Source of the DNA: Escherichia coli
Lineage (GTDB): Bacteria > Pseudomonadota > Gammaproteobacteria > Enterobacterales > Enterobacteriaceae
DNA: 64,000 nt
NCBI RefSeq assembly: GCF_002854065.1
Contig: NZ_CP024147.1
Direction: 5' to 3' (one strand)
In this document: in pieces, positions 10,113-32,677 of the stretch
How the letters are laid out: each line of letters starts with the position of its first letter
How positions within the stretch are numbered: the first letter of the stretch is position 1
Made by a program: the position numbers and the translations under genes
Notes under the pieces: model-generated
Seen by the model: the letters and a program-made list of their open reading frames with translations, nothing else
Databases searched by the model: none
What the model was told of the DNA's origin: nothing

Positions 10113-12089
10113 ATGTCTGACGACATGTCTATGGGTTTGCCTTCGTCAGCGGGCGAACACGGTGTACTACGCTCCATGCAGGAGGTTGCAATGAGCTCCC
10201 AGGAAGCCAGCAAGATGCTGCGTACTTACAATATTGCCTGGTGGGGCAATAACTACTATGACGTTAACGAGCTGGGCCACATTAGCGTGTGCCCGGACCC
10301 GGACGTCCCGGAAGCTCGCGTCGATCTCGCGCAGTTAGTGAAAACTCGTGAAGCACAGGGCCAGCGTCTGCCTGCACTGTTCTGTTTCCCACAGATCCTG
10401 CAGCACCGTTTGCGTTCCATTAACGCCGCGTTCAAACGTGCGCGGGAATCCTACGGCTATAACGGCGATTACTTCCTTGTTTATCCGATCAAAGTTAACC
10501 AGCACCGCCGCGTGATCGAGTCCCTGATTCATTCGGGCGAACCACTGGGTCTGGAAGCCGGTTCCAAAGCCGAGTTGATGGCAGTGCTGGCACATGCTGG
10601 CATGACCCGTAGCGTCATCGTCTGCAACGGTTATAAAGACCGCGAATATATCCGCCTGGCATTAATTGGCGAGAAGATGGGGCACAAGGTCTATCTGGTC
10701 ATTGAGAAGATGTCAGAAATCGCCATTGTGCTGGATGAAGCAGAACGTCTGAATGTCGTTCCTCGTCTGGGCGTGCGTGCACGTCTGGCTTCGCAGGGCT
10801 CGGGTAAATGGCAGTCCTCCGGCGGGGAAAAATCGAAGTTCGGCCTGGCTGCGACTCAGGTACTGCAACTGGTTGAAACCCTGCGTGAAGCCGGGCGTCT
10901 CGACAGCCTGCAACTACTGCACTTCCACCTCGGTTCGCAGATGGCGAATATTCGCGATATCGCCACAGGCGTTCGTGAATCGGCGCGTTTCTATGTGGAA
11001 CTGCACAAGCTGGGCGTCAATATTCAGTGCTTCGACGTCGGCGGCGGTCTGGGCGTGGATTATGAAGGTACTCGTTCGCAGTCCGACTGTTCGGTGAACT
11101 ACGGCCTCAATGAATATGCCAACAACATCATCTGGGCGATTGGTGATGCGTGTGAAGAAAACGGTCTGCCGCATCCGACGGTAATCACCGAATCGGGTCG
11201 TGCGGTGACTGCGCATCACACCGTGCTGGTGTCGAATATCATCGGCGTGGAACGTAACGAATACACGGTGCCGACCGCGCCTGCAGAAGATGCGCCGCGC
11301 GCGCTGCAAAGCATGTGGGAAACCTGGCAGGAGATGCACGAACCGGGAACTCGCCGTTCTCTGCGTGAATGGTTACACGACAGTCAGATGGATCTGCACG
11401 ACATTCATATCGGCTACTCTTCCGGCACCTTTAGCCTGCAAGAACGTGCATGGGCTGAGCAGCTTTATTTGAGCATGTGCCATGAAGTGCAAAAGCAACT
11501 GGATCCGCAAAACCGTGCTCATCGTCCGATTATCGACGAGCTGCAGGAACGTATGGCGGACAAAATGTACGTCAACTTCTCGCTGTTCCAGTCGATGCCG
11601 GATGCGTGGGGGATCGACCAGTTGTTCCCGGTTCTGCCGCTGGAAGGGCTGGATCAAGTGCCGGAACGCCGCGCTGTGCTGCTGGATATTACCTGTGACT
11701 CTGACGGTGCTATCGACCACTATATCGATGGTGATGGTATTGCCACGACAATGCCTATGCCGGAGTACGATCCAGAGAATCCGCCGATGCTCGGTTTCTT
11801 TATGGTCGGCGCATATCAGGAGATCCTCGGCAACATGCACAACCTGTTCGGTGATACCGAAGCGGTTGACGTGTTCGTCTTCCCTGACGGTAGTGTAGAA
11901 GTGGAACTGTCTGACGAAGGCGATACCGTGGCGGACATGCTGCAATATGTACAGCTCGATCCGAAAACGCTGTTAACTCAGTTCCGTGATCAAGTGAAGA
12001 AAACCGATCTTGATGCTGAACTGCAACAACAGTTCCTTGAAGAGTTCGAGGCAGGTTTGTACGGTTATACCTATCTTGAAGATGAATAA
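10113..12089 (+). CDS. speA: Biosynthetic arginine decarboxylase, 658 aa
   Basis: ORF in track (listed from a TTG at 10101); ATG at 10113 gives [40 protein letters not shown]. Confidence 0.95.
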
Positions 12090-12105
12090 TTAAGATTATT
12101 CTGCT

Positions 12106-12148
12106 GGCGGGTCGATTTATTTACGTAAATCGGCCCGCTTTCTTTTTA
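12106..12148 (+). terminator. Rho-independent terminator after speA
   Basis: Hairpin gcgggtcgattta-tttacg-taaatcggcccgc followed by tttcttttt. Confidence 0.6.
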
Positions 12149-12234
12149 TATATTCTTAAAAATAATTTAGCTGCTTTTCTTATTAAATAATCTCCCTACA
12201 ATCGCTGCATTAATTAAATGCAGAGGGAACGGTT

Positions 12235-12513
12235 ATGAAAAAATGGAAAGTACGTAGCGCGTTGGTGGCATTAATCGTGCTGCTGGCCGGTTGTTCCAGT
12301 AATGCGCAGTATAATAGCAGTGCATCGGGCAATGTCGGCACCGCCTGGGGTGGGGATGTGCACTCAACGGTTCAGGGCGTATCTGCTGAGCGAGCCTGGC
12401 GCGATCCGGCGGAGATGATCGTTATTAGTTATTCGACTAATGTTCCTTCCGGCTACGACCGCGTTTATAGCATTCGTATTAACGAACTGGAATATGCTAT
12501 TCGCGATGGGTGA
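12235..12513 (+). pseudogene. 5-prime fragment of a lipoprotein gene, truncated by IS1 (stop codon supplied by the IS1 inverted repeat)
   Basis: Signal peptide plus lipobox MKKWKVRSALVALIVLLAGC-SS; reading frame runs into the IS1 left end and ends at TGA inside ggTGAtgctgcc. Confidence 0.55.
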
Positions 12514-12563
12514 TGCTGCCAACTTACTGATTTAGTGTATGATGGTGTTTTTGAGGTGCTCCA

Positions 12564-12839
12564 GTGGCTTCTGTTTCTATCAGCTGTCCCTCCTGTTCAG
12601 CTACTGACGGGGTGGTGCGTAACGGCAAAAGCACTGCCGGACATCAGCGCTATCTCTGCTCTCACTGCCGTAAAACATGGCAACTGCAGTTCACTTACAC
12701 CGCTTCTCAACCCGGTACGCACCAGAAAATCATTGATATGGCCATGAATGGCGTTGGATGCCGGGCAACCGCCCGCATTATGGGCGTTGGCCTCAACACG
12801 ATTTTCCGCCATTTAAAAAACTCAGGCCGCAGTCGGTAA
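12564..12839 (+). CDS. insA: IS1 InsA (transposition repressor / N-terminal part of InsAB-prime transposase)
   Basis: [43 protein letters not shown]...; A6C slippery site ttaaaaaactc near 12816. Confidence 0.9.
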
Positions 12840-13261
12840 CCTCGCGCATACAGCCGGGCAGTGACGTCATCGTCTGCGCGGAAATGGACGAACAGTGGGG
12901 ATACGTCGGGGCTAAATCGCGCCAGCGCTGGCTGTTTTACGCGTATGACAGGCTCCGGAAGACGGTTGTTGCGCACGTATTCGGTGAACGCACTATGGCG
13001 ACGCTGGGGCGTCTTATGAGCCTGCTGTCACCCTTTGACGTGGTGATATGGATGACGGATGGCTGGCCGCTGTATGAATCCCGCCTGAAGGGAAAGCTGC
13101 ACGTAATCAGCAAGCGATATACGCAGCGAATTGAGCGGCATAACCTGAATCTGAGGCAGCACCTGGCACGGCTGGGACGGAAGTCGCTGTCGTTCTCAAA
13201 ATCGGTGGAGCTGCATGACAAAGTCATCGGGCATTATCTGAACATAAAACACTATCAATAA
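12758..13261 (+). CDS. insB: IS1 InsB reading frame (expressed as InsAB-prime by -1 frameshifting)
   Basis: ORF in track ...[50 protein letters not shown]... Confidence 0.9.
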
Positions 13262-13463
13262 GTTGGAGTCATTACCCACGCAAAGCACTGTTTAGTTTTA
13301 CCATAGTACTTAGTAATAAAAGCATTCATGTTTTCCTCGTATATTATTATTTAAATTCAAACCACCAACTTCATTTGCGAGTCACCGGTATCCCATATTT
13401 TTGGGATGTAGCTATAATTATCCATTCCCGCTATTTAGTCTTCAAAAAAAATTACATTTAATA

Positions 13464-14069
13464 TCATTTATCTTGATTGAGAAATAGTAAGACTAAAAAA
13501 ACAAGCGTCGTCAACCAGCACACTGCTAACACGGTAAGAACGCTAATAAAAACACTCCACTGCTTCGTTTTATACCATTCAATATTTTTGTCAGTATGTT
13601 TTATTGGGAGTAGCTCTTCAGTAGAGAATTCCTGGCTGTTATCATTCCCAGAAATGTGTGCATCAGTGTTTACTTCCCTGGCCTCGCTATCATTGGTATA
13701 GCTACTACAGTCTTCATCACTGCCACGCTCATTCTCACAGACATGTTTCTCGACCTTTCCAAGATATCTGACGCCTTTTCGCGGAATGGTTTTAATTAGA
13801 GAACTCGACAAACCAGCGATGTCTAATGCCTTTCTAAGCATGTAAATCTGCCCATAATAACTGCTGTCGCTTACCGAACCTTTCTGCTCCCGCCAAACCT
13901 CATTGATAATATGTTGCTTATCGGATTCTCCCTGTAGTAAAAGGAGTAAAAATCGATAGCCGTTTTCAGACAGATTAATTACATTGCCTGTACTGGTGGT
14001 GATACGTCGAGACGCTGGGTAAAACTTAACTCCCTGCCCTAAAGAAAAATAAAAACGGTCATCGCTCAT
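13464..14069 (-). CDS. Putative membrane-anchored ToxR/CadC-like transcriptional regulator (N-terminal winged-helix domain, C-terminal TM helix), 201 aa
   Basis: ORF in track; N-terminal region resembles OmpR/ToxR-type DNA-binding domains (GVRYLGKV); hydrophobic stretch WSVFISVLTVLAVCWLTTLVFLVLLFL near the C-terminus; lies in AT-rich DNA. Confidence 0.45.
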   Translation of the reverse strand: MSDDRFYFSLGQGVKFYPASRRITTSTGNVINLSENGYRFLLLLLQGESDKQHIINEVWREQKGSVSDSSYYGQIYMLRKALDIAGLSSSLIKTIPRKGVRYLGKVEKHVCENERGSDEDCSSYTNDSEAREVNTDAHISGNDNSQEFSTEELLPIKHTDKNIEWYKTKQWSVFISVLTVLAVCWLTTLVFLVLLFLNQDK

Positions 14070-15395
14070 AAGTACCGAACCCTGTTTTCTTCTTCACATG
14101 ACTACTCATTACAACTTTGTATGAAGTAAGATGCAAAATCATATTGTTTACATTAAGTTAAGCAATTATACCGTTTAAACAAAGACAATACGTCTCTTTA
14201 TTTCTCATAAAACCCAAATCCCTTACAGGGCTTATTGAAAAATTTAAAAATCACAAATTTCTCAATACTAAAAATGAGATCACATAAGAAATCAAAAAAC
14301 CTTCTCATCTATTTTAAGTTTTCCCAACGTAAAATAAGAGCTTTTATTAATAACTGAACCACTTTACTGTTCTATTTGTTCAGGTATTGCATTACGGTGT
14401 GCTGAGATCCATAGGTGCATCCCTGTATCCCGCGATGAGACTAAAATAGTCGTGATTTAAGCTCGTATCAGATTCTTAGTGAATACCACATTTGTTATAA
14501 TTAAGTGAAAAGATACATTGCTGATTTACATTTTTTGGTTTACAAAATGTCATCACTTACAGAGTTATCGCTGACATATACCTTTAATCTCTTAATCCTT
14601 TCGTGTTATTGCAATACAACCATCCATAAAGCAGGCTATTTTTAGCAGGAAATACTCAGGTGTCAACATTCGAACCCCAACCCTGAAATATTCATATAAA
14701 TTAATGATTTTTTCATTTATTCACACCTAATCAAAGTATTCAAATTCAGATGATTTTTCTGCTCAACAGACACAAACAGGCAATAATACTCTCCAAAGCG
14801 AACAATATTTGGCATTACGATTTAATGCTTCATAATCACCAAATCATTTAACTATAAATTTTCTTATTTTTAACGAAATGGTTGGTGTTTTTTTGGAATT
14901 AAAACACATACATAATATTAACATCTACCGACATTTCACTTTCCGCAAGACGAATGATTTCGAATCCTCATCTACGTTCTCCCATCCCAAATATCTTTAT
15001 TAATAGGCAGTAACGAACACTGTTATAGCAAGATTACCTTATTAACCTAATGGAATCCTTTATGTAACAAGTGAAAATAAATTCCTTAAAATTGATTCTC
15101 AGCAAATCTTAAAAGTTCTCATTATTCTGCAAAATCAGCTTTGCGAATAATCTTATGTTTTTGGGAATTTTGATCTGCTCATTGCTCTCGTGAAAAATAC
15201 AAACAAGAGAAAAAACGCCATTCGTCATGAAAAGAACAGACGTAGCAATGTAATAACATACTAAAATTGATCTCATGAAAGTGGGTGCTTTATAACCAGC
15301 ACAGAAGCTCAGACGTATAAATATTAAACAATTTGCATTGTAAAACGGAGACTATGTATTAAGAAGCCAATCGTAAAAACGGTTCCCTGGCGAGA

Positions 15396-15443
15396 TAAAC
15401 GACAAACAAATGGAAAGCCGGATGATATTTACCTTCATCCGGC
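15396..15443 (-). terminator. Putative rho-independent terminator after glcA
   Basis: Hairpin gccggatga / tcatccggc followed on the minus strand by tttccatttgtttgtcgttta. Confidence 0.5.
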
Positions 15444-15452
15444 ATTATTGAC

Positions 15453-17135
15453 TTACGAAACTAACATCCCGGTAAACACATACGCCTGCAACAGCGTGAT
15501 AATGCCGATAACGCTGGCAAAAATCAGACTGTGCTTCACGGTATAGCGGAACAGTTCAGATTCTCGGCCCACCATGCCCGTCGCGGCGCAGGCCACGGCG
15601 ATAGATTGCGGGGAGATCATCTTGCCAGTTACGCCGCCGCTGGTATTTGCTGCCACCAGCAGAGTGTCAGAGACGTTGATTTGCTGCGCCGTGGTCGATT
15701 GCAGTGAACCAAACAGGGCGTTAGAGGAGGTGTCCGAGCCGGTAAGGAATACGCCCAGCCAGCCGAGAAACGGTGAGAAGAACGGGAACATCACGCCTGT
15801 ACCTGCCAGTACCAGCGCCAGCGTGGTGGACATGCCGGAATAGTTGGTGACGAAAGCGAACGCCAGCACCATGCCAATCGACAATATCGGCCACTTCAGA
15901 CTAATTAGCGTTTCGGCAAAGACGCCAATCCCTTTCTTGATGCCCACGCCGAGGATGAAGATAGAGATAATCGCCGCAATAAAAATAGCGGTGCCGCCAG
16001 CCGAGAGGGGGTCGAATTTAAACACCGCATCCATCGGCGTTGGTTGGGCGACAATGGGTGCCGCTTTCAACACTTGTTGATGCAAATGAGGGATCTGGAA
16101 ATTAATCACCAGTGAATAAAACGCGCCGCCCGGAGCAAATAACGCTTTAAACGGCTTCATGGTCCAGATGGTGACCAGCACCGTTAAGATTAAAAACGGT
16201 GACCACGCTCGAATGATTTGCCCCAGACTATATTCTGAAGGCACGGGACCGCCAGAAGATGGCTTATTTACCACCATCGCACCTGCGGATTGTCCCATGC
16301 TGATTGCCGTTTCGGTATTTTTCGGCCGCCAGACTTTAAGGAATAAAGCGAGTGAGACGATACTCACCAGCGCCGAAGTAATATCCGGCAGTTCCGGACC
16401 AATATAATTAGAGGTAAAGAACTGAGTGACAGCGAAGCTTCCCCCAGCAACCAGCGCCGCTGGCCACGTCTCTTTCACCCCTTTCCAGCCGTCCATCATT
16501 GCTACCAGCCAGAACGGCACAAGAACCGACAGGAACGGTAACTGACGTCCCGCCATTGCGCCAATGTGGAACGGATCGATTCCCGTTACCTGACCGGCGA
16601 CCAGAATCGGCACGCCCAACGCACCAAACGCCACCGGCGCAGTATTGGCAATCAGACACAGCCCTGCCGCGTATAAAGGTTTGAAGCCCAGGCCCACCAG
16701 CAGAGCACCAGTAATCGCCACCGGAGCACCAAAGCCAGCCGCCCCTTCCAGCAGCGCGCCAAAGGAGAAACCAATCAGTAACACCTGCAAACGCTGATCG
16801 TCAGTGATGGAGATGACCGAGCTGCGGATAATATCAAACTGACCGCTGGCAACGGTTAATTTATAGAGGAATACCGCTGCAACAATAATCCAGGCAATAG
16901 GCCATAAACCATAAATAAAGCCATAGCCCGCAGCAGCAAATGCCATATCAATCGGCATTTTAAAGGCGAATATCGCAATCAGGATAGATAATATAAGGGT
17001 TATCGCTCCAGCGACATGTCCTTTCAGACGTAATACCGCGAGTGCAACGAAGAAGAATATTATCGGGATCAGGGCGACCAGAGCGGATAGCCCCAGTCCT
17101 CCCATCGGCATATACATTTGGGTCCAGGTAACCAT
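15453..17135 (-). CDS. glcA: Glycolate/lactate permease (LctP family), 560 aa
   Basis: Full-length polytopic ORF recognised as GlcA; last gene of the glc operon. Confidence 0.9.
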
Positions 17136-26041: not shown

Positions 26042-26411
26042 AGTTCTGTGGGTAACAAATAATTAACGGTGAAAAACAGGTTGCAACAGCAACGAACGGC
26101 ATCTTAATAATCAACCCAATGAATACAAACGACGAATAAATAGTATTTATTAATGATTACGATAGGGTCAGCGACTACGCAGAAGCGCCACAATGCCTTT
26201 TGTCGATTTAAGGCGACCGGACAAGGCTTCTTCTTAATATATTCATAAATTAAATATCATTCACAATAAAAACAAAAAACTTAAATTCATTATTTAAATC
26301 AATGTTCATTTTCACACCGATGAAAATACTATCTCATTTATCTTTTATGCCTATATAATCCACCGCATTATTGTCATTTTATTTTGGATATCCAATTTTT
26401 TCGTGGTGTAT

Positions 26412-28133
26412 ATGTCTAATAAAATCTTTACGCATTCCCTACCTATGCGCTATGCCGATTTTCCAACGCTGGTTGATGCTTTGGACTACGCCGCTCTGAG
26501 TAGCGCTGGAATGAATTTTTATGACAGACGTTGCCAACTTGAAGATCAACTGGAATATCAGACGTTAAAAGCGCGTGCCGAAGCTGGTGCGAAGCGGTTG
26601 TTATCGCTAAACCTGAAAAAAGGCGATCGCGTGGCGCTGATTGCCGAAACCAGTAGCGGGTTCGTAGAGGCTTTTTTTTCCTGCCAGTATGCCGGCTTAG
26701 TCGCCGTCCCGTTGGCGATTCCAATGGGCGTCGGTCAGCGGGATTCCTGGAGCGCCAAACTGCAGGGTTTACTGGCAAGTTGCCAGCCCGCTGCCATTAT
26801 CACTGGTGATGAGTGGTTGCCGCTGGTCAATGCCGCCACGCATAACAACCCCGAATTGCATGTATTAAGCCACGCCTGGTTTAAGGCATTACCGGAAGCT
26901 GATGTTGCGCTCCAGCGCCCAGTTCCGGACGATATCGCCTACCTCCAGTACACCTCCGGCAGCACCCGTTTTCCCCGTGGCGTCATTATCACCCATCGCG
27001 AAGTGATGGCTAATCTACGTGCTATAAGCCACGATGGCATTAAATTACGCCCTGGCGACCGCTGCGTCTCCTGGCTGCCTTTCTACCATGATATGGGACT
27101 GGTCGGCTTTCTCCTGACCCCGTTCGCCACGCAGCTTTCAGTAGATTATTTGCGCACTCAGGATTTTGCCATGCGTCCTCTGCAATGGCTTAAATTGATC
27201 AGTAAAAATCGCGGCACCGTTTCCGTTGCGCCGCCGTTTGGCTATGAATTGTGCCAGCGCCGCGTGAATGAAAAAGATCTCGCTGAACTGGATCTTTCCT
27301 GCTGGCGCGTCGCTGGTATTGGTGCAGAACCCATCTCCGCAGAACAACTCCATCAATTCGCTGAATGTTTCCGTCAGGTTAACTTTGACGATAAAACTTT
27401 CATGCCGTGCTACGGACTGGCAGAAAATGCGCTGGCTGTCAGTTTCTCTGATGAAGCCTCCGGGGTTGTGGTTAACGAAGTGGATCGCGACATCCTCGAA
27501 TATCAGGGTAAAGCCGTTGCGCCGGGTGCAGAGACACGCGCCGTATCGACTTTCGTCAACTGCGGTAAAGCGTTGCCGGAACATGGTATTGAAATCCGCA
27601 ATGAAGCAGGTATACCTGTCGCGGAACGTGTGGTAGGCCATATTTGCATCTCCGGCCCTAGCCTGATGAGCGGTTACTTTGGCGACCAGGTTTCACAAGA
27701 CGAGATTGCCGCGACGGGCTGGTTAGACACCGGGGACCTCGGTTATCTGCTGGACGGTTATCTGTATGTCACCGGACGCATTAAAGATCTGATTATTATT
27801 CGTGGCCGTAATATCTGGCCGCAGGATATTGAATATATTGCGGAACAGGAACCGGAAATTCATTCTGGCGATGCGATTGCTTTTGTTACCGCCCAGGAAA
27901 AAATCATTTTGCAGATCCAGTGTCGGATCAGCGATGAAGAACGTCGCGGGCAGCTTATCCACGCGCTGGCAGCACGGATCCAAAGCGAATTTGGCGTAAC
28001 AGCGGCTATCGATCTGTTGCCGCCCCACAGTATTCCCCGAACGTCCTCCGGTAAGCCTGCCCGTGCGGAAGCGAAAAAACGTTATCAGAAGGCTTATGCT
28101 GCCAGTCTTCATGTGCAGGAATCCCTGGCATGA
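26412..28133 (+). CDS. Fatty acyl-AMP ligase / acyl-CoA synthetase-like adenylating enzyme, about 573 aa
   Basis: AMP-binding core motif YTSGSTRFPRGVIITH and the overall architecture of ANL-superfamily enzymes; first gene of a 4-gene operon. Confidence 0.75.
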   Translation: MSNKIFTHSLPMRYADFPTLVDALDYAALSSAGMNFYDRRCQLEDQLEYQTLKARAEAGAKRLLSLNLKKGDRVALIAETSSGFVEAFFSCQYAGLVAVPLAIPMGVGQRDSWSAKLQGLLASCQPAAIITGDEWLPLVNAATHNNPELHVLSHAWFKALPEADVALQRPVPDDIAYLQYTSGSTRFPRGVIITHREVMANLRAISHDGIKLRPGDRCVSWLPFYHDMGLVGFLLTPFATQLSVDYLRTQDFAMRPLQWLKLISKNRGTVSVAPPFGYELCQRRVNEKDLAELDLSCWRVAGIGAEPISAEQLHQFAECFRQVNFDDKTFMPCYGLAENALAVSFSDEASGVVVNEVDRDILEYQGKAVAPGAETRAVSTFVNCGKALPEHGIEIRNEAGIPVAERVVGHICISGPSLMSGYFGDQVSQDEIAATGWLDTGDLGYLLDGYLYVTGRIKDLIIIRGRNIWPQDIEYIAEQEPEIHSGDAIAFVTAQEKIILQIQCRISDEERRGQLIHALAARIQSEFGVTAAIDLLPPHSIPRTSSGKPARAEAKKRYQKAYAASLHVQESLA

Positions 28134-29044
28134 ATCAAACTGTCGCGGTGACGGGCGCTACCGGGTTTATCGGTAAATATATTATCGATAACCTGCTCAC
28201 CCGCGGCTTTCACGTTCGCGCATTGACGCGTACTGCCCGCGCTCACGTCAATGATAATCTTACTTGGGTGCGCGGTTCGCTGGAAGATACACATTCGCTT
28301 AGCGAACTGGTTGCCGGAGCCAGCGCGGTGGTCCATTGCGCCGGGCAAGTGCGCGGACACAAAGAAGAGATTTTTACCCACTGTAACGTTGACGGCAGCC
28401 TGCGCCTGATGCAAGCAGCAAAAGAGAGCGGCTTTTGCCAACGTTTTCTGTTTATCTCTTCGCTGGCGGCGCGCCATCCCGAGCTCTCCTGGTACGCAAA
28501 TTCCAAACACGTCGCCGAACAACGGCTGACGGCAATGGCTGACGAAATTACGCTGGGCGTTTTTCGCCCGACAGCCGTGTATGGTCCCGGCGATAAAGAG
28601 TTAAAACCGCTGTTTGACTGGATGCTGCGCGGCCTGCTGCCACGACTTGGTGCACCAGATACACAGTTCTCTTTCCTGCATGTCACCGATTTTGCGCAAG
28701 CAGTGGGTCAGTGGTTAAGCGCCGAAACTGTACAGACGCAAACCTATGAATTATGCGATGGCGTCGCTGGCGGCTATGACTGGCAACGCGTACGACAGCT
28801 TGCCGCCGAAGCCCGTTGTGGTTCCGTGCGGATGGTTGGCCTTCCTCTGCCGGTACTCACCTGCCTTGCGGATATCAGTACTGCGTTGAGTCGCCTGGCA
28901 GGTAAAGAACCTATGCTGACCCGCTCGAAAATTCGTGAATTAACCCACGCCGACTGGTCGGCAAGTAATAACCGTATTTCTGAAGATATTAATTGTTTTC
29001 CCGGGATTAGCCTGGAACACGCATTACGCAACGGGCTATTTTGA
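28130..29044 (+). CDS. NAD(P)-dependent epimerase/dehydratase-family (SDR) oxidoreductase, 304 aa
   Basis: N-terminal Rossmann motif VTGATGFIGKYI; start overlaps the upstream stop (ATGA). Confidence 0.7.
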   Translation: MNQTVAVTGATGFIGKYIIDNLLTRGFHVRALTRTARAHVNDNLTWVRGSLEDTHSLSELVAGASAVVHCAGQVRGHKEEIFTHCNVDGSLRLMQAAKESGFCQRFLFISSLAARHPELSWYANSKHVAEQRLTAMADEITLGVFRPTAVYGPGDKELKPLFDWMLRGLLPRLGAPDTQFSFLHVTDFAQAVGQWLSAETVQTQTYELCDGVAGGYDWQRVRQLAAEARCGSVRMVGLPLPVLTCLADISTALSRLAGKEPMLTRSKIRELTHADWSASNNRISEDINCFPGISLEHALRNGLF

Positions 29045-29075
29045 TTGTCTTGTTTAAAGGTGTGTTAACGTTTCT

Positions 29076-29324
29076 ATGGTAAATCGTGAAATAGTAATGG
29101 ATTACATCCTTTCCTGTTTACAGGATTTGGTCGAAAACGGTGTGGAAATTAAGCCCGACAGCGATCTCGTCAACGATCTTGGCCTGGAGTCGATCAAAGT
29201 GATGGATCTCTTAATGATGCTGGAAGACAGATTCGATATTTCCATTCCTATTAATATTCTGCTGGATGTCAAAACCCCTGCGCAATTAATGGAAACTCTA
29301 CTTCCATGGCTGGAGAATAAATAA
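29076..29324 (+). CDS. Acyl carrier protein-like small protein, about 75-82 aa
   Basis: Phosphopantetheine-attachment-like motif DLGLESIKVMDL; acidic helical protein; start ambiguous (29076 or 29097). Confidence 0.6.
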   Translation: MVNREIVMDYILSCLQDLVENGVEIKPDSDLVNDLGLESIKVMDLLMMLEDRFDISIPINILLDVKTPAQLMETLLPWLENK

Positions 29325-30496
29325 TGGGGCTATACGATAAATATGCGCGCCTTGCTGGCGAGCGACTGCAATTTAGTGACAACGGGTTAACACCGTTTGG
29401 CACCTGTATTGATGAAGTGTATTCCGCCACCGAAGGCCGGATCGGCAATAAAAAAGTGATTCTGGCCGGGACCAATAATTACCTCGGTTTAACCTTTAAT
29501 CATGATGCCATCGCCGAAGGTCAGGCAGCGTTAGCGGCCCAAGGCACCGGCACCACCGGTTCTCGTATGGCAAACGGCAGTTATGCGCCGCACCTGGCGT
29601 TAGAGAAAGAGATTGCCGAGTTTTTCAATCGCCCTACCGCTATCGTTTTTTCAACCGGTTATACCGCTAATTTAGGCGTCATCAGCGCACTTGCCGACCA
29701 TAACGCCGTGGTGTTACTGGATGCCGACAGCCACGCCAGTATTTATGACGCCTGTTCTCTCGGTGGCGCGGAAATTATTCGTTTCCGCCATAACGATGCT
29801 AAAGATCTGGAACGGCGCATGGTTCGCCTCGGTGAACGGGCGAAAGAGGCGATTATCATCGTTGAGGGTATCTACAGCATGCTCGGTGACGTTGCGCCGC
29901 TGGCGGAAATTGTTGATATCAAACGTCGTCTCGGTGGTTATTTGATTGTCGATGAAGCGCATTCGTTTGGCGTGTTAGGCGCAACGGGGCGCGGACTGGC
30001 TGAAGCTGTCGGCGTTGAAGATGATGTGGATATTATCGTTGGCACCTTCAGTAAAAGTCTGGCCTCGATTGGCGGTTTTGCTGTCGGTTCGGAAGCGATG
30101 GAAGTACTGCGCTACGGCAGCCGCCCGTATATTTTTACCGCCTCTCCTTCTCCGTCCTGCATTGCGACCGTGCGCTCGTCGTTAAAAACTATTGCCACAC
30201 AACCAGAGCTGCGGCAAAAGCTGATGGATAACGCCAACCATCTGTATGACGGTCTGCAAAAACTGGGTTATGAGTTAAGTTCACATATTAGCCCGGTAGT
30301 GCCGGTAATAATCGGTTCGAAAGAGGAAGGTTTACGCATCTGGCGCGAGCTTATTTCGCTGGGCGTTTATGTGAATCTTATCCTGCCACCTGCCGCGCCT
30401 GCAGGCATCACGCTGCTGCGCTGTAGCGTAAACGCTGCCCACAGTCGTGAGCAAATCGATGCCATCATTCAGGCATTTGCTACTCTGAAGCAGTAA
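29324..30496 (+). CDS. PLP-dependent alpha-oxoamine synthase family enzyme (BioF / serine palmitoyltransferase / CqsA-like), 390 aa
   Basis: Class-II aminotransferase fold with lysine motif GTFSKSLASIGGF; start overlaps the ACP stop. Confidence 0.75.
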   Translation: MGLYDKYARLAGERLQFSDNGLTPFGTCIDEVYSATEGRIGNKKVILAGTNNYLGLTFNHDAIAEGQAALAAQGTGTTGSRMANGSYAPHLALEKEIAEFFNRPTAIVFSTGYTANLGVISALADHNAVVLLDADSHASIYDACSLGGAEIIRFRHNDAKDLERRMVRLGERAKEAIIIVEGIYSMLGDVAPLAEIVDIKRRLGGYLIVDEAHSFGVLGATGRGLAEAVGVEDDVDIIVGTFSKSLASIGGFAVGSEAMEVLRYGSRPYIFTASPSPSCIATVRSSLKTIATQPELRQKLMDNANHLYDGLQKLGYELSSHISPVVPVIIGSKEEGLRIWRELISLGVYVNLILPPAAPAGITLLRCSVNAAHSREQIDAIIQAFATLKQ

Positions 30497-30530
30497 TGTG
30501 AGCCCGCCGTGGTGTTGCGCCACGGCGGGT

Positions 30531-31610
30531 TTAATGTTGTCTGTCATACCAATACACCAGGCTCAACGCCACCAGCACAAACGCTATCGGTAAACCGAGC
30601 GCGGTAACAGGTGCGCTCAACGCAAATAGCAATCCCAGATTGACCATGATTTGATAGCTGATCCAGGTGAGTAAGCCAACGATGACACCTACAGCGAGAC
30701 GGCTACCCATCCCTGGCGAGCGCGGGGCACTAAAGGTAAACGGCACAGCCAGCAAAATCATCGCCAGGGTCAGGATGGGTTGCCCCAGTTTTTCCCACAG
30801 TGCAAGGCGGTATTCGCTGCTGGGTTGCCCGGTTTCCTGCAAATAATGGATGTAATGATTAAGCTGACGGACAGAAAAAGTATTCCCCGGCATCGATAGC
30901 TCTTCAAGATCCATACTGGTGAAGGCCGATTGCCAGGCAAGATTATCTGATGTTTCCAGCGTTTCTTTGCCATTCAGCCATTTTTTATGATTCACACCAT
31001 GCAGGATCCACGTTTTGTCGTCTTCAATGGTGGCACTGCGTGCATAAATGTAGGATTCGAGCGAAAGATCATCACGATAATGAAAAATCTCCACGCGCAC
31101 AGGCTGGCCCTGCTCGTTCAGCGATTTTACCGTCACAAATTCATTACCGCGCCTGGCCCACAGCATATTGCCGGTAATGTCATCGTCCTCACCCAACGCA
31201 GTGGCAGTCGATTTGATTTGCAGCGCCTGTTGCTGCAATGGCGACGCTACCCACTCATCTATCGCGCCTAACGAAACAGTCCACAATATCCCGGCAACCA
31301 GCGCCACCAGTGCAATACGGAAGATAGAAAACCCCGTGCTGCGAATGGCGGTAAGCTCACTGTTTTTCGATAACTGCCCCAGGCCAACAATCCCTCCCAA
31401 TAAGGCGATAAACGGCGAAAGTTCGACCAGTGTGCGCGGTAAGGTCATTAGCACCACCAGCACCGCCTGAGTCCAGCGATAACCGCCCGGGCTGACATCA
31501 TCCAGTTCGTTAATCAGGTTGAAGGTGGTAAAAAGCGGCAGCAATAGCCCTGCGGCGGCGGCAAAACCGAGAAAGAGATGACGGATTAAATAGCGACTGA
31601 AAACATTCAT
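30531..31610 (-). CDS. LptF/LptG-family (YjgP/YjgQ) permease paralog, about 359 aa
   Basis: N-terminus MNVFSRYLIRHLFLGFAAAAGLL resembles LptF/LptG; polytopic with a large central soluble loop; start set at the Met with overlap to the upstream gene stop. Confidence 0.55.
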   Translation of the reverse strand: MNVFSRYLIRHLFLGFAAAAGLLLPLFTTFNLINELDDVSPGGYRWTQAVLVVLMTLPRTLVELSPFIALLGGIVGLGQLSKNSELTAIRSTGFSIFRIALVALVAGILWTVSLGAIDEWVASPLQQQALQIKSTATALGEDDDITGNMLWARRGNEFVTVKSLNEQGQPVRVEIFHYRDDLSLESYIYARSATIEDDKTWILHGVNHKKWLNGKETLETSDNLAWQSAFTSMDLEELSMPGNTFSVRQLNHYIHYLQETGQPSSEYRLALWEKLGQPILTLAMILLAVPFTFSAPRSPGMGSRLAVGVIVGLLTWISYQIMVNLGLLFALSAPVTALGLPIAFVLVALSLVYWYDRQH

Positions 31611-32677
31611 CGGGAAAATTTCTGCAGCAAAGAGAAGTCGCGTGCGACCAGCATCAGCAGGCCCATTAGCATGAGTCCGGGCACTAACCACAAACCAGGA
31701 ATGAGAGGAATCGCGCCGTTAGCCACCAGCGTACGGCAGACGTCGCCGCCATAAAAAATGGCAATAAACAGCAACGTCAGTGGCAATAACGTTGAAAATC
31801 GCCCCTGCCGCGGTTTTACCCGACTTAATGAAATGGCCAGCAGCGCCATCAACAATGCTGTCAGGCCACGGCTTTGTCGCCATTGCAGTTCGGCATGATC
31901 GGCTGGAAAGACGGAGCGCGCCAGCTCCGTGACCGATTTCGCTTTGCGTTTGACGTTAGGGCTTTGATCCAGCGGATTCAGATGTAATTGCAGATTACGG
32001 TAGATCTGTTCGTTGTCGTCACGCCCCTGATGATCGAGAAGATAGGCAGTGCCGTTGTGCAACATAACAGTCGGTTTCTCGGGTGATGGGTCAACCACAT
32101 CAACCGAACGGGCGCGGAAAATGCGGGTTCGATTGGCAGTAGAAGTATAAATCAGCGCGTCAGTCAGGCGATTATTATCCTGATCAACCGTCTGCGAAAG
32201 GATCATTCGTCCGTTATCGTTAGTGTTAAATTTCTTTGCCCGCAACTGGCGAACATCCAGCTCCGACTGCGACTGCTGCTCCAGTTGATAAATCTGCGCA
32301 TAAGCCCACGGACGACCATACATCGACAGAAGGGTGACAAAAATACTTAGCGGTATCGCCAGATAAAGAACGGCTTTGTACAAGCGTCCCGGACTGCCCC
32401 CCGCCGCAGAGATAGCGGTAATTTCCGAGTCGGTATACATCTGCCCTAGCGTCACGCCAACTGACACATACAGTCCAACAGGTAACAACATCTCCAGTGC
32501 AATCAGCACTTTGTAGAAAACGATATCCAGCACAACATCAAGTGCTAATGTCCCATTTGCCGCTTCGGTCAGATAACGCTGTGCGGAGTAGCTGGCGAAA
32601 ATAAAGATCAGAAAACCGACGATAATCAGCACCAGACGGCGCGTACCACGCATGATGTAGTGTTCAACCAGCTTCAT
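31607..32677 (-). CDS. LptF/LptG-family (YjgP/YjgQ) permease paralog, 356 aa
   Basis: Same architecture as the adjacent gene; translationally coupled pair. Confidence 0.55.
   Translation of the reverse strand: MKLVEHYIMRGTRRLVLIIVGFLIFIFASYSAQRYLTEAANGTLALDVVLDIVFYKVLIALEMLLPVGLYVSVGVTLGQMYTDSEITAISAAGGSPGRLYKAVLYLAIPLSIFVTLLSMYGRPWAYAQIYQLEQQSQSELDVRQLRAKKFNTNDNGRMILSQTVDQDNNRLTDALIYTSTANRTRIFRARSVDVVDPSPEKPTVMLHNGTAYLLDHQGRDDNEQIYRNLQLHLNPLDQSPNVKRKAKSVTELARSVFPADHAELQWRQSRGLTALLMALLAISLSRVKPRQGRFSTLLPLTLLFIAIFYGGDVCRTLVANGAIPLIPGLWLVPGLMLMGLLMLVARDFSLLQKFSR

Follow-up and report, generated by a model that had tools for sequence, protein, structure and literature searches.

Among the systems described so far, the closest to the locus reported here is PypB of Yersinia, a protein that reportedly activates the tad operon when overproduced, whose gene is said to be part of that operon, and whose linkage to tad was reportedly thought to be confined to Yersinia. 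By its title, a 2010 paper (J Bacteriol 192:3809) presents PypB as an activator of the Y. enterocolitica tad operon, a 2023 survey places it among transmembrane regulators, with Flp type IVb pilin expression under its control in Y. enterocolitica and Y. ruckeri (PMC10269533), and it acts on hreP and pypC in Yersinia too (PMC3521999). More generally, V. cholerae ToxR tethers a cytoplasmic winged helix by one membrane helix, its periplasmic domain measuring ~100 aa and its partner being ToxS, while E. coli CadC, of 512 aa, combines a ToxR-like topology and a disordered cytoplasmic linker with a large periplasmic pH/cadaverine sensor and the partner LysP. Periplasmic segments are likewise present in PsaE/MyfE, TcpP, YqeI and GrvA. 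The latter are one-component membrane regulators heading acquired adhesin or secretion loci, and PsaE, MyfE and YqeI have the partner proteins PsaF, MyfF and YqeJ (PMC10269533). Locus-linked activators of flp/tad transcription are also found in PprB of P. aeruginosa and ECA0785/0786 of Pectobacterium, which are phosphorylation-driven and contain receiver domains.

We analysed a 64-kb stretch of Escherichia coli DNA, referred to as a whole as the window, and followed up one of its genes (Table 1). With considerable confidence, we read this ORF as the E. coli/Shigella-lineage orthologue of PypB, an activator tail-anchored in the inner membrane and heading an acquired Flp/Tad island, which an IS1 rearrangement has severed from the genes downstream. 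The architecture, family, synteny and rearrangement on which this reading draws come from the present analysis.

Table 1. Features of the window around the pypB-like gene, in order of position.
Feature	Position	Strand	Description	Basis
speA	10101-12089	+		window ORF list
Lipoprotein gene, 5' part	12235..12508	+	about 92 codons, cut by IS1; between speA and speB in reference genomes	
IS1	12509..13276	+	768 bp, at rearrangement junction	sequence read
flp (Flp type IVb prepilin), 5' stub	13279..13329	-	17 codons, then IS1	tblastn
Promoter-like site TTGAAG-17-GATAAT	13417..13445	-	flp-proximal; overlaps box GAAGACTAAAT	promoter scan
Conserved box GAAGACTAAAT	13433-13443	-	21 nt past regulator stop	
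pypB-like gene	13464..14069	-	intact; 201-aa tail-anchored ToxR-type regulator	ORF and identity to intact-locus allele
Single transmembrane helix and 4-residue tail (predicted)	13467..13556	-	codons 172-201	
Linker	13575..13739	-	codons 111-165; acidic, poorly conserved, predicted disordered	
Winged helix-turn-helix, OmpR/PhoB/ToxR-type	13740..14057	-	codons 5-110	
AT-rich, island-specific non-coding tract	14070..15343	.	upstream of regulator; probable promoter and silencing region	
Candidate operator, direct repeat TATGAGAAATAAAGAGAC	14192..14209	-	TGAGA-N5-AGAGA, ~10-bp period; 124-141 nt upstream of start	
glcA	15453..17135	-	core gene; island abuts its 3' end and terminator hairpin	

A preliminary description of this DNA had proposed a ToxR/CadC-like regulator of 201 aa with an N-terminal winged helix, a single hydrophobic helix near the C-terminus and almost no periplasmic part, and each of these elements has held. 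The 606-bp gene begins with ATG (window ORF list). When compared with solved structures, the family profile matches V. cholerae ToxR DNA-binding domains alone (E=2.6e-11). The AlphaFold2 model, with a pLDDT of 94-97 for most of residues 11-110, finds DNA-bound ToxR as its best Foldseek match (8b4d, E=4e-7, target-normalised TM 0.80, 33% identity), with CadC (5ju7) and PhoB behind it. The domain comprises a 4-stranded sheet, helices at 35-45, 51-58 and 68-84, and a wing at 92-102 whose conserved motif is TIPRKGVRY. A Pfam Trans_reg_C match, which the preliminary description had suggested looking for, does exist at residues 29-99 (E=5e-5, 23.7 bits) but stays below the curated cut-off of 26.2 bits, and comparably weak matches occur in 20 of 27 family members. 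Membership of the YgeH/HilA family (NCBIfam) was considered and rejected, the score being 21.7 bits against a cut-off of 800.

The linker holds 15 D+E residues against 4 K+R, and its pLDDT is below 50 at residues 128-161. Beyond it lies the sole hydrophobic segment (~172-197; VFISVLTVLAVCWLTTLVFLVLLFL), with a 19-residue Kyte-Doolittle maximum of 2.72 at residues 177-195; AlphaFold2 places a helix at 169-199, with a pLDDT of about 93-97 across residues 171-200, and just NQDK follows before the protein ends. No receiver domain with a phospho-acceptor aspartate was found, the winged helix starting at about residue 5 and Response_reg giving no match. With 4 residues beyond the helix, a periplasmic sensor domain is absent, as is the CadC C-terminal sensor domain, the Pfam search giving no match besides Trans_reg_C. 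Judged by sequence and predicted structure, the product is a ToxR/CadC-type membrane-anchored one-component regulator.

Comparison with the systems introduced above places it more closely. ToxR, the best match to its DNA-binding domain in both sequence and structure, shares the winged helix tethered by one membrane helix, but the window protein has 4 periplasmic residues, no adjacent partner gene and a strongly conserved membrane helix. CadC is alike in topology, DNA-binding domain and linker, but nothing corresponding to its sensor or to LysP is found in the window protein. PprB and ECA0785/0786 resemble it in being linked to the loci they activate, whereas the window protein has neither a receiver domain nor a kinase. 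The Pectobacterium tad regulator was also considered as a relative and rejected, being an unrelated two-component system.

The homologues found in database searches number about 190, with lengths of 175-242 aa (median 198); the 155 full-length ones span Enterobacterales and Aeromonas. Both the DNA-binding match and the conservation in related genomes on which the preliminary description had staked its proposal were thus found. The family is small and sharply bounded: an HMM search of 1.84 billion cluster representatives yielded 12 clusters at E<=1e-30, and outside the PypB clade profile scores fall from ~1e-39 to 1e-24, PsaE/MyfE, TcpP, YqeI and GrvA belonging to different clades. Eight of the nine next-best proteins sampled are ToxR-like, of 246-286 aa, with a mid-protein helix and periplasmic tails of ~60-100 aa; the ninth, of 149 aa, ends straight after its helix. 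Distant matches from the genome scan, in Bradyrhizobium and elsewhere, were assigned to a different family because their similarity was confined to the winged helix and no tad genes lay nearby.

The Y. enterocolitica tad-linked member, of 199 aa, is 41% identical over its full length, from residue 1 through the helix (E=4e-47), and the family profile recovers the Y. enterocolitica members at E~1e-75. Its gene stands directly upstream of a 66-aa ORF and of Peptidase_A24, secretin, T2SSE and T2SSF genes, with no other regulator gene beside tad at the examined locus. The name PypB is given by no source to any of the about 190 homologues; we infer that the family is PypB from position, architecture, the survey table, the title of the 2010 paper and what the abstract of that paper reportedly states. 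The window protein shares with PypB a length of about 200 aa, a winged helix, a linker, a C-terminal helix with a CW motif and, ancestrally, the place of first gene before flp-tadV-rcp-tad. It differs in its host, of the E. coli/Shigella lineage, in the canonical Flp encoded downstream and in the severing of the operon by IS1.

Linkage to tad genes is a consistent property of this family. Scanning a species-representative collection (one genome per species), we recovered full-length homologues at 30 loci, which belong to Intestinirhabdus, two Mixta, Hafnia, Serratia, Izhakiella, Phytobacter, Pluralibacter, Leminorella, two Budvicia, Pragia, 13 Yersinia species, Sodalis (a pseudogene), Aeromonas and three unclassified or MAG genomes. 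At all 30 the regulator lies directly upstream of, and co-directional with, flp-tadV-rcpCAB-tadZABCDEFG. A canonical Flp prepilin motif (G/VTAIEY) follows 110-320 nt past the regulator stop in the non-Yersinia loci; the motif has no match in Yersinia Flp.

The same arrangement is preserved intact within E. coli. O145:H28 and PapRG-06-5 carry the same 606-bp gene between glcA and an Flp-family pilin gene, the full order being glcA, AT tract, regulator, flp (78 aa at full length) and tadV onward. After the pilin come an A24 prepilin peptidase, CpaB/RcpC, a secretin, RcpB, TadZ and CpaF/TadA, then two T2SS-F proteins (TadB/C), a TPR protein (TadD) and TadE/F/G, and this gene set makes up a whole tad (tight adherence) operon for a type IVb pilus. 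The regulator likewise precedes flp/tad at all of the at least 10 places listed as encoding the identical protein. No partner gene of the ToxS/TcpH/PsaF type, which not all ToxR-like regulators have, occurs between regulator and flp in intact loci, nor upstream of the regulator in the AT tract. The regulator is thus the dedicated first gene of an Flp/Tad type IVb pilus island, a feature absent from the earlier reading, which had nonetheless proposed searching for full-length homologues and their neighbours; those neighbours prove to be the Flp/Tad operon. In PapRG-06-5 and another island locus, tad is followed by a TcfC E-set-like usher-type protein, hypothetical proteins and then type VI secretion. 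The glcA-adjacent site is a composite island, since an usher-type cluster and a type VI secretion locus follow tad.

This linkage is ancestral and now broken in the window, as just 17 flp codons remain before IS1. Past the regulator stop at 13464, a normal 134-bp spacer leads into the flp stub, which is 94% identical to Flp residues 1-17 (tblastn), and the stub runs into the IS1 end; the 64-kb window contains no other tad genes and a single IS1 copy. The element sits at a recombination junction and is no simple insertion, because its flanks lack a target-site duplication (the 9-bp flanks ttcgcgatg and cacgcaaag differ). The left flank, with speA and the lipoprotein 5' part, matches the minus strand of NZ_CP007133.1 (E. 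coli O145:H28 RM12761), ending at 3,639,077, and the right flank matches the plus strand of the same chromosome from 3,695,842. RM12761 has the order speA-lipoprotein-speB, and IS1 joins the lipoprotein gene and flp in inverted relative orientation. Since the flanks match opposite strands, an IS1-associated inversion of ~56.8 kb relative to RM12761 is indicated; judging from these alignments, the window probably represents one end of it, possibly with loss of sequence, and the reciprocal junction lies beyond the window. The outcome is that flp is split and the operon separated from the regulator and its upstream region, leaving the regulator intact and its adjacent target lost. The junction is absent from 5426 complete E. 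coli genomes and from the at least 10 listed places that encode the identical protein.

The preliminary description had taken the position beside an IS1 junction as the mark of an island remnant on horizontally acquired DNA, and the flp stub and the IS1 without target duplication agree with this. So does the distribution of the gene: of 5426 complete E. coli genomes just 36 carry it, each time in the chromosome and with an identity of >=99%. Six of these 36 retain all 11.7 kb of the regulator-tad stretch. The other 30 islands are truncated at a minimum of 10 distinct distal points, with the glcA-proximal regulator end nearly always kept. Strain CUWW06 has its regulator gene split by IS1, several further E. 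coli strains hold partial copies, and S. flexneri assemblies retain regulator-flp-tadV only, between other IS elements and in an arrangement unlike that of the window. The island is rare and decaying in this lineage, undergoing repeated and independent erosion, and the window is another erosion variant.

The regulator may have been kept since it controls other genes here, as a co-opted orphan that functions without flp. Its ORF bears no inactivating mutation, the regulator end has almost always been spared in the truncated islands, and the action of PypB on hreP and pypC offers a precedent for wider targets. Position explains the retention equally well, however, since the island erodes from its distal end and the regulator borders the core gene glcA. 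Moreover, the regulator has itself been hit by IS1 or truncated in other strains, the candidate operator pattern has its single match in the 64-kb window at the regulator's own upstream region, and identity to intact alleles suggests a recent event and not selection. We therefore consider co-option quite unlikely; the gene has probably lost its function in this genome.

The window holds a further accessory cluster at 26403-32677, beside yghO, encoding an AMP-binding fatty-acyl ligase, an NAD epimerase/reductase, a class I/II aminotransferase (serine palmitoyltransferase in a reference genome's annotation) and a second LptF/LptG permease pair. It looks like a lipid synthesis and export module.

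The AT-rich DNA next to the regulator, which the preliminary description had singled out as gene-free, is indeed so, and proves to be island DNA and no separate feature. Positions 14070-15452 (1.38 kb) have 32% GC against 51% for the window and contain no credible ORF. Counting copies with >=80% coverage, 36 of 5426 E. coli genomes have the tract, roughly as many as have the gene, and it is never annotated; of its length, just the final ~110 bp by the glcA terminator also occur in a few other genomes. Since tract and gene are found together in the same set of ~36 genomes, this DNA belongs to the island as its upstream region. The 500 bp preceding the gene are AT-rich (24-42% GC) in all orthologues, and 277-1656 bp separate the gene from the end of the closest upstream ORF of >=100 aa. 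No Rfam match was obtained in 12000-15600 at a permissive E-value, and comparison of the tract with the 30 orthologous loci (blastn word 7, tblastx) revealed no conserved ORF or block, only one 20-nt match in Phytobacter. The tract is probably a long promoter and silencing region, of a kind that H-NS targets on acquired islands. Just past the glcA stop, at ~15408-15440 on the - strand, a hairpin GCCGGATGA...TCATCCGGC followed by a T-rich run is likely to be the terminator of glcA; it delimits the island on the core side.

The Phytobacter match led to the direct repeat listed as a candidate operator in Table 1. In Hafnia, Serratia, Phytobacter and a MAG, TGAGA-N5-TGAGR repeats are found 126-163 nt before the start codon, and the pattern, which was defined post hoc, occurs at 6 of 31 loci against 0.5+-0.7 in shuffles; it is absent or degenerate in several loci. 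Head-to-tail winged-helix dimers that bind tandem repeats of 10-bp period are established for PhoB, OmpR and ToxR. A run of (TGAGA)5, the same pentamer, stands 60-80 nt upstream of a pypB-like start in Y. enterocolitica, and could be an operator array or a slipped-strand switch.

On the flp side, the box GAAGACTAAAT recurs in Yersinia (gtaattttaAAAGACTAAAT; AAAGACTAAAT, whose GTAATTTT prefix is the same) and is similar to AATGAGGAC in other genera; its summed best mismatches are 93 against 121+-3.9 in shuffles, a figure in which the 13 Yersinia loci are not independent. The regulator-flp spacer also includes an inverted repeat, ATCCCA-AAAATA-TGGGAT (13386-13403, - strand), possibly bound by a protein or forming an RNA hairpin within the flp leader, and Yersinia spacers have a GGGAT-N-ATCCC palindrome near the flp start. 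An unbiased search for enriched 9-mers (1 mismatch) in the 500 bp upstream of 21 orthologues returned only A/T-rich words, none above shuffles, and MAFFT found the proximal upstream and intergenic DNA mostly unalignable between genera. As regulatory sites, these candidate elements, read from sequence patterns, are suggestive only.

Conservation along the protein bears on how it may be controlled. Across 64 sequences, non-redundant at 80% identity, the top-residue frequency averages 0.70 for the winged helix and 0.61 for the membrane helix, against 0.23 for the linker. Residues C184 and W185 are invariant; conservation is 88-98% at W171, L178, A179, L186 and L189 and ~70% at I175 and A182; the Cys-Trp pair lies inside the helix in all 155 full-length homologues. 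As the conserved positions recur every 3-4 residues, they fall on one face of the helix, and since a plain anchor would not need conservation, such one-sidedness suggests helix-helix packing. The helix could pack against another copy of itself or against a constantly co-occurring membrane partner, for example a Tad or Flp protein. In the former case, self-association would stand in for the periplasmic domains and partners through which ToxR and TcpP dimerise.

We may thus outline how the regulator would act. The sites bound by its cytoplasmic winged helix would be direct repeats, located within the AT-rich region preceding the regulator gene and/or within the 134-bp spacer, and the bound regulator would recruit RNA polymerase to transcribe pypB-flp-tadV-rcpCAB-tadZABCDEFG. 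Because a periplasmic sensor is absent, control would probably fall on the regulator's own expression, through a long AT-rich, probably H-NS-silenced and autoregulated promoter region, and/or on the conserved membrane-helix face, through self-association or contact with a membrane partner. A more specific proposal, which we put forward as speculative and on balance unlikely, is that in the sensor-less PypB family the helix is itself the signal input, the stripe (W171, I175, L178, A182, W185, L189) and the Cys-Trp pair contacting the Flp prepilin or the Tad platform in feedback control; alternatively, the stripe would drive dimerisation. Pseudomonas PilS, which senses pilin, is an analogue for such intramembrane feedback.

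The strict co-occurrence with tad genes, and a helix conserved nearly as well as the N-terminal domain, might also be expected if the protein were not primarily a transcription factor and instead a membrane component of the Tad machinery, its winged-helix-like domain serving, for example, for protein docking. We consider this highly improbable. The domain matches DNA-bound effector domains (ToxR, CadC and PhoB) and keeps a recognition helix and the T-I-P-R-K-G wing, and PypB, to go by the title of the 2010 paper, was published as a transcriptional activator. Canonical tad loci elsewhere assemble pili without such a protein, and the Pectobacterium tad locus uses a two-component system instead.

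Finally, that the protein is a truncated CadC/ToxR-type sensor whose periplasmic domain was lost by mutation or to the nearby IS1, a possibility raised in the preliminary description and prompted by the mere 4 residues past the helix, the IS1 at 187 bp and the longer tails of the nearest out-group relatives, is scarcely credible, as all 155 full-length homologues end 0-8 residues past the helix, the protein is 100% identical (201/201 residues) to the one encoded in the complete locus of PapRG-06-5, and past its stop codon come the conserved spacer and the start of flp, just as where the locus is unbroken. The short tail is a trait of the PypB family.

The regulator itself is of an ordinary and already known kind, and holds nothing surprising to a specialist. 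What the analysis offers is, firstly, a sharper annotation, from 'winged helix-turn-helix domain-containing protein' to regulator of an Flp/Tad adhesion-pilus island, and a further example of insertion sequences dismantling a tad island. Secondly, the linkage of PypB to tad, found in at least 15 lineages besides Yersinia, reaches well beyond that genus. On the long-standing question of what membrane tethering adds, members of this family, being ToxR-like regulators without a periplasmic sensor, may serve as a minimal model.
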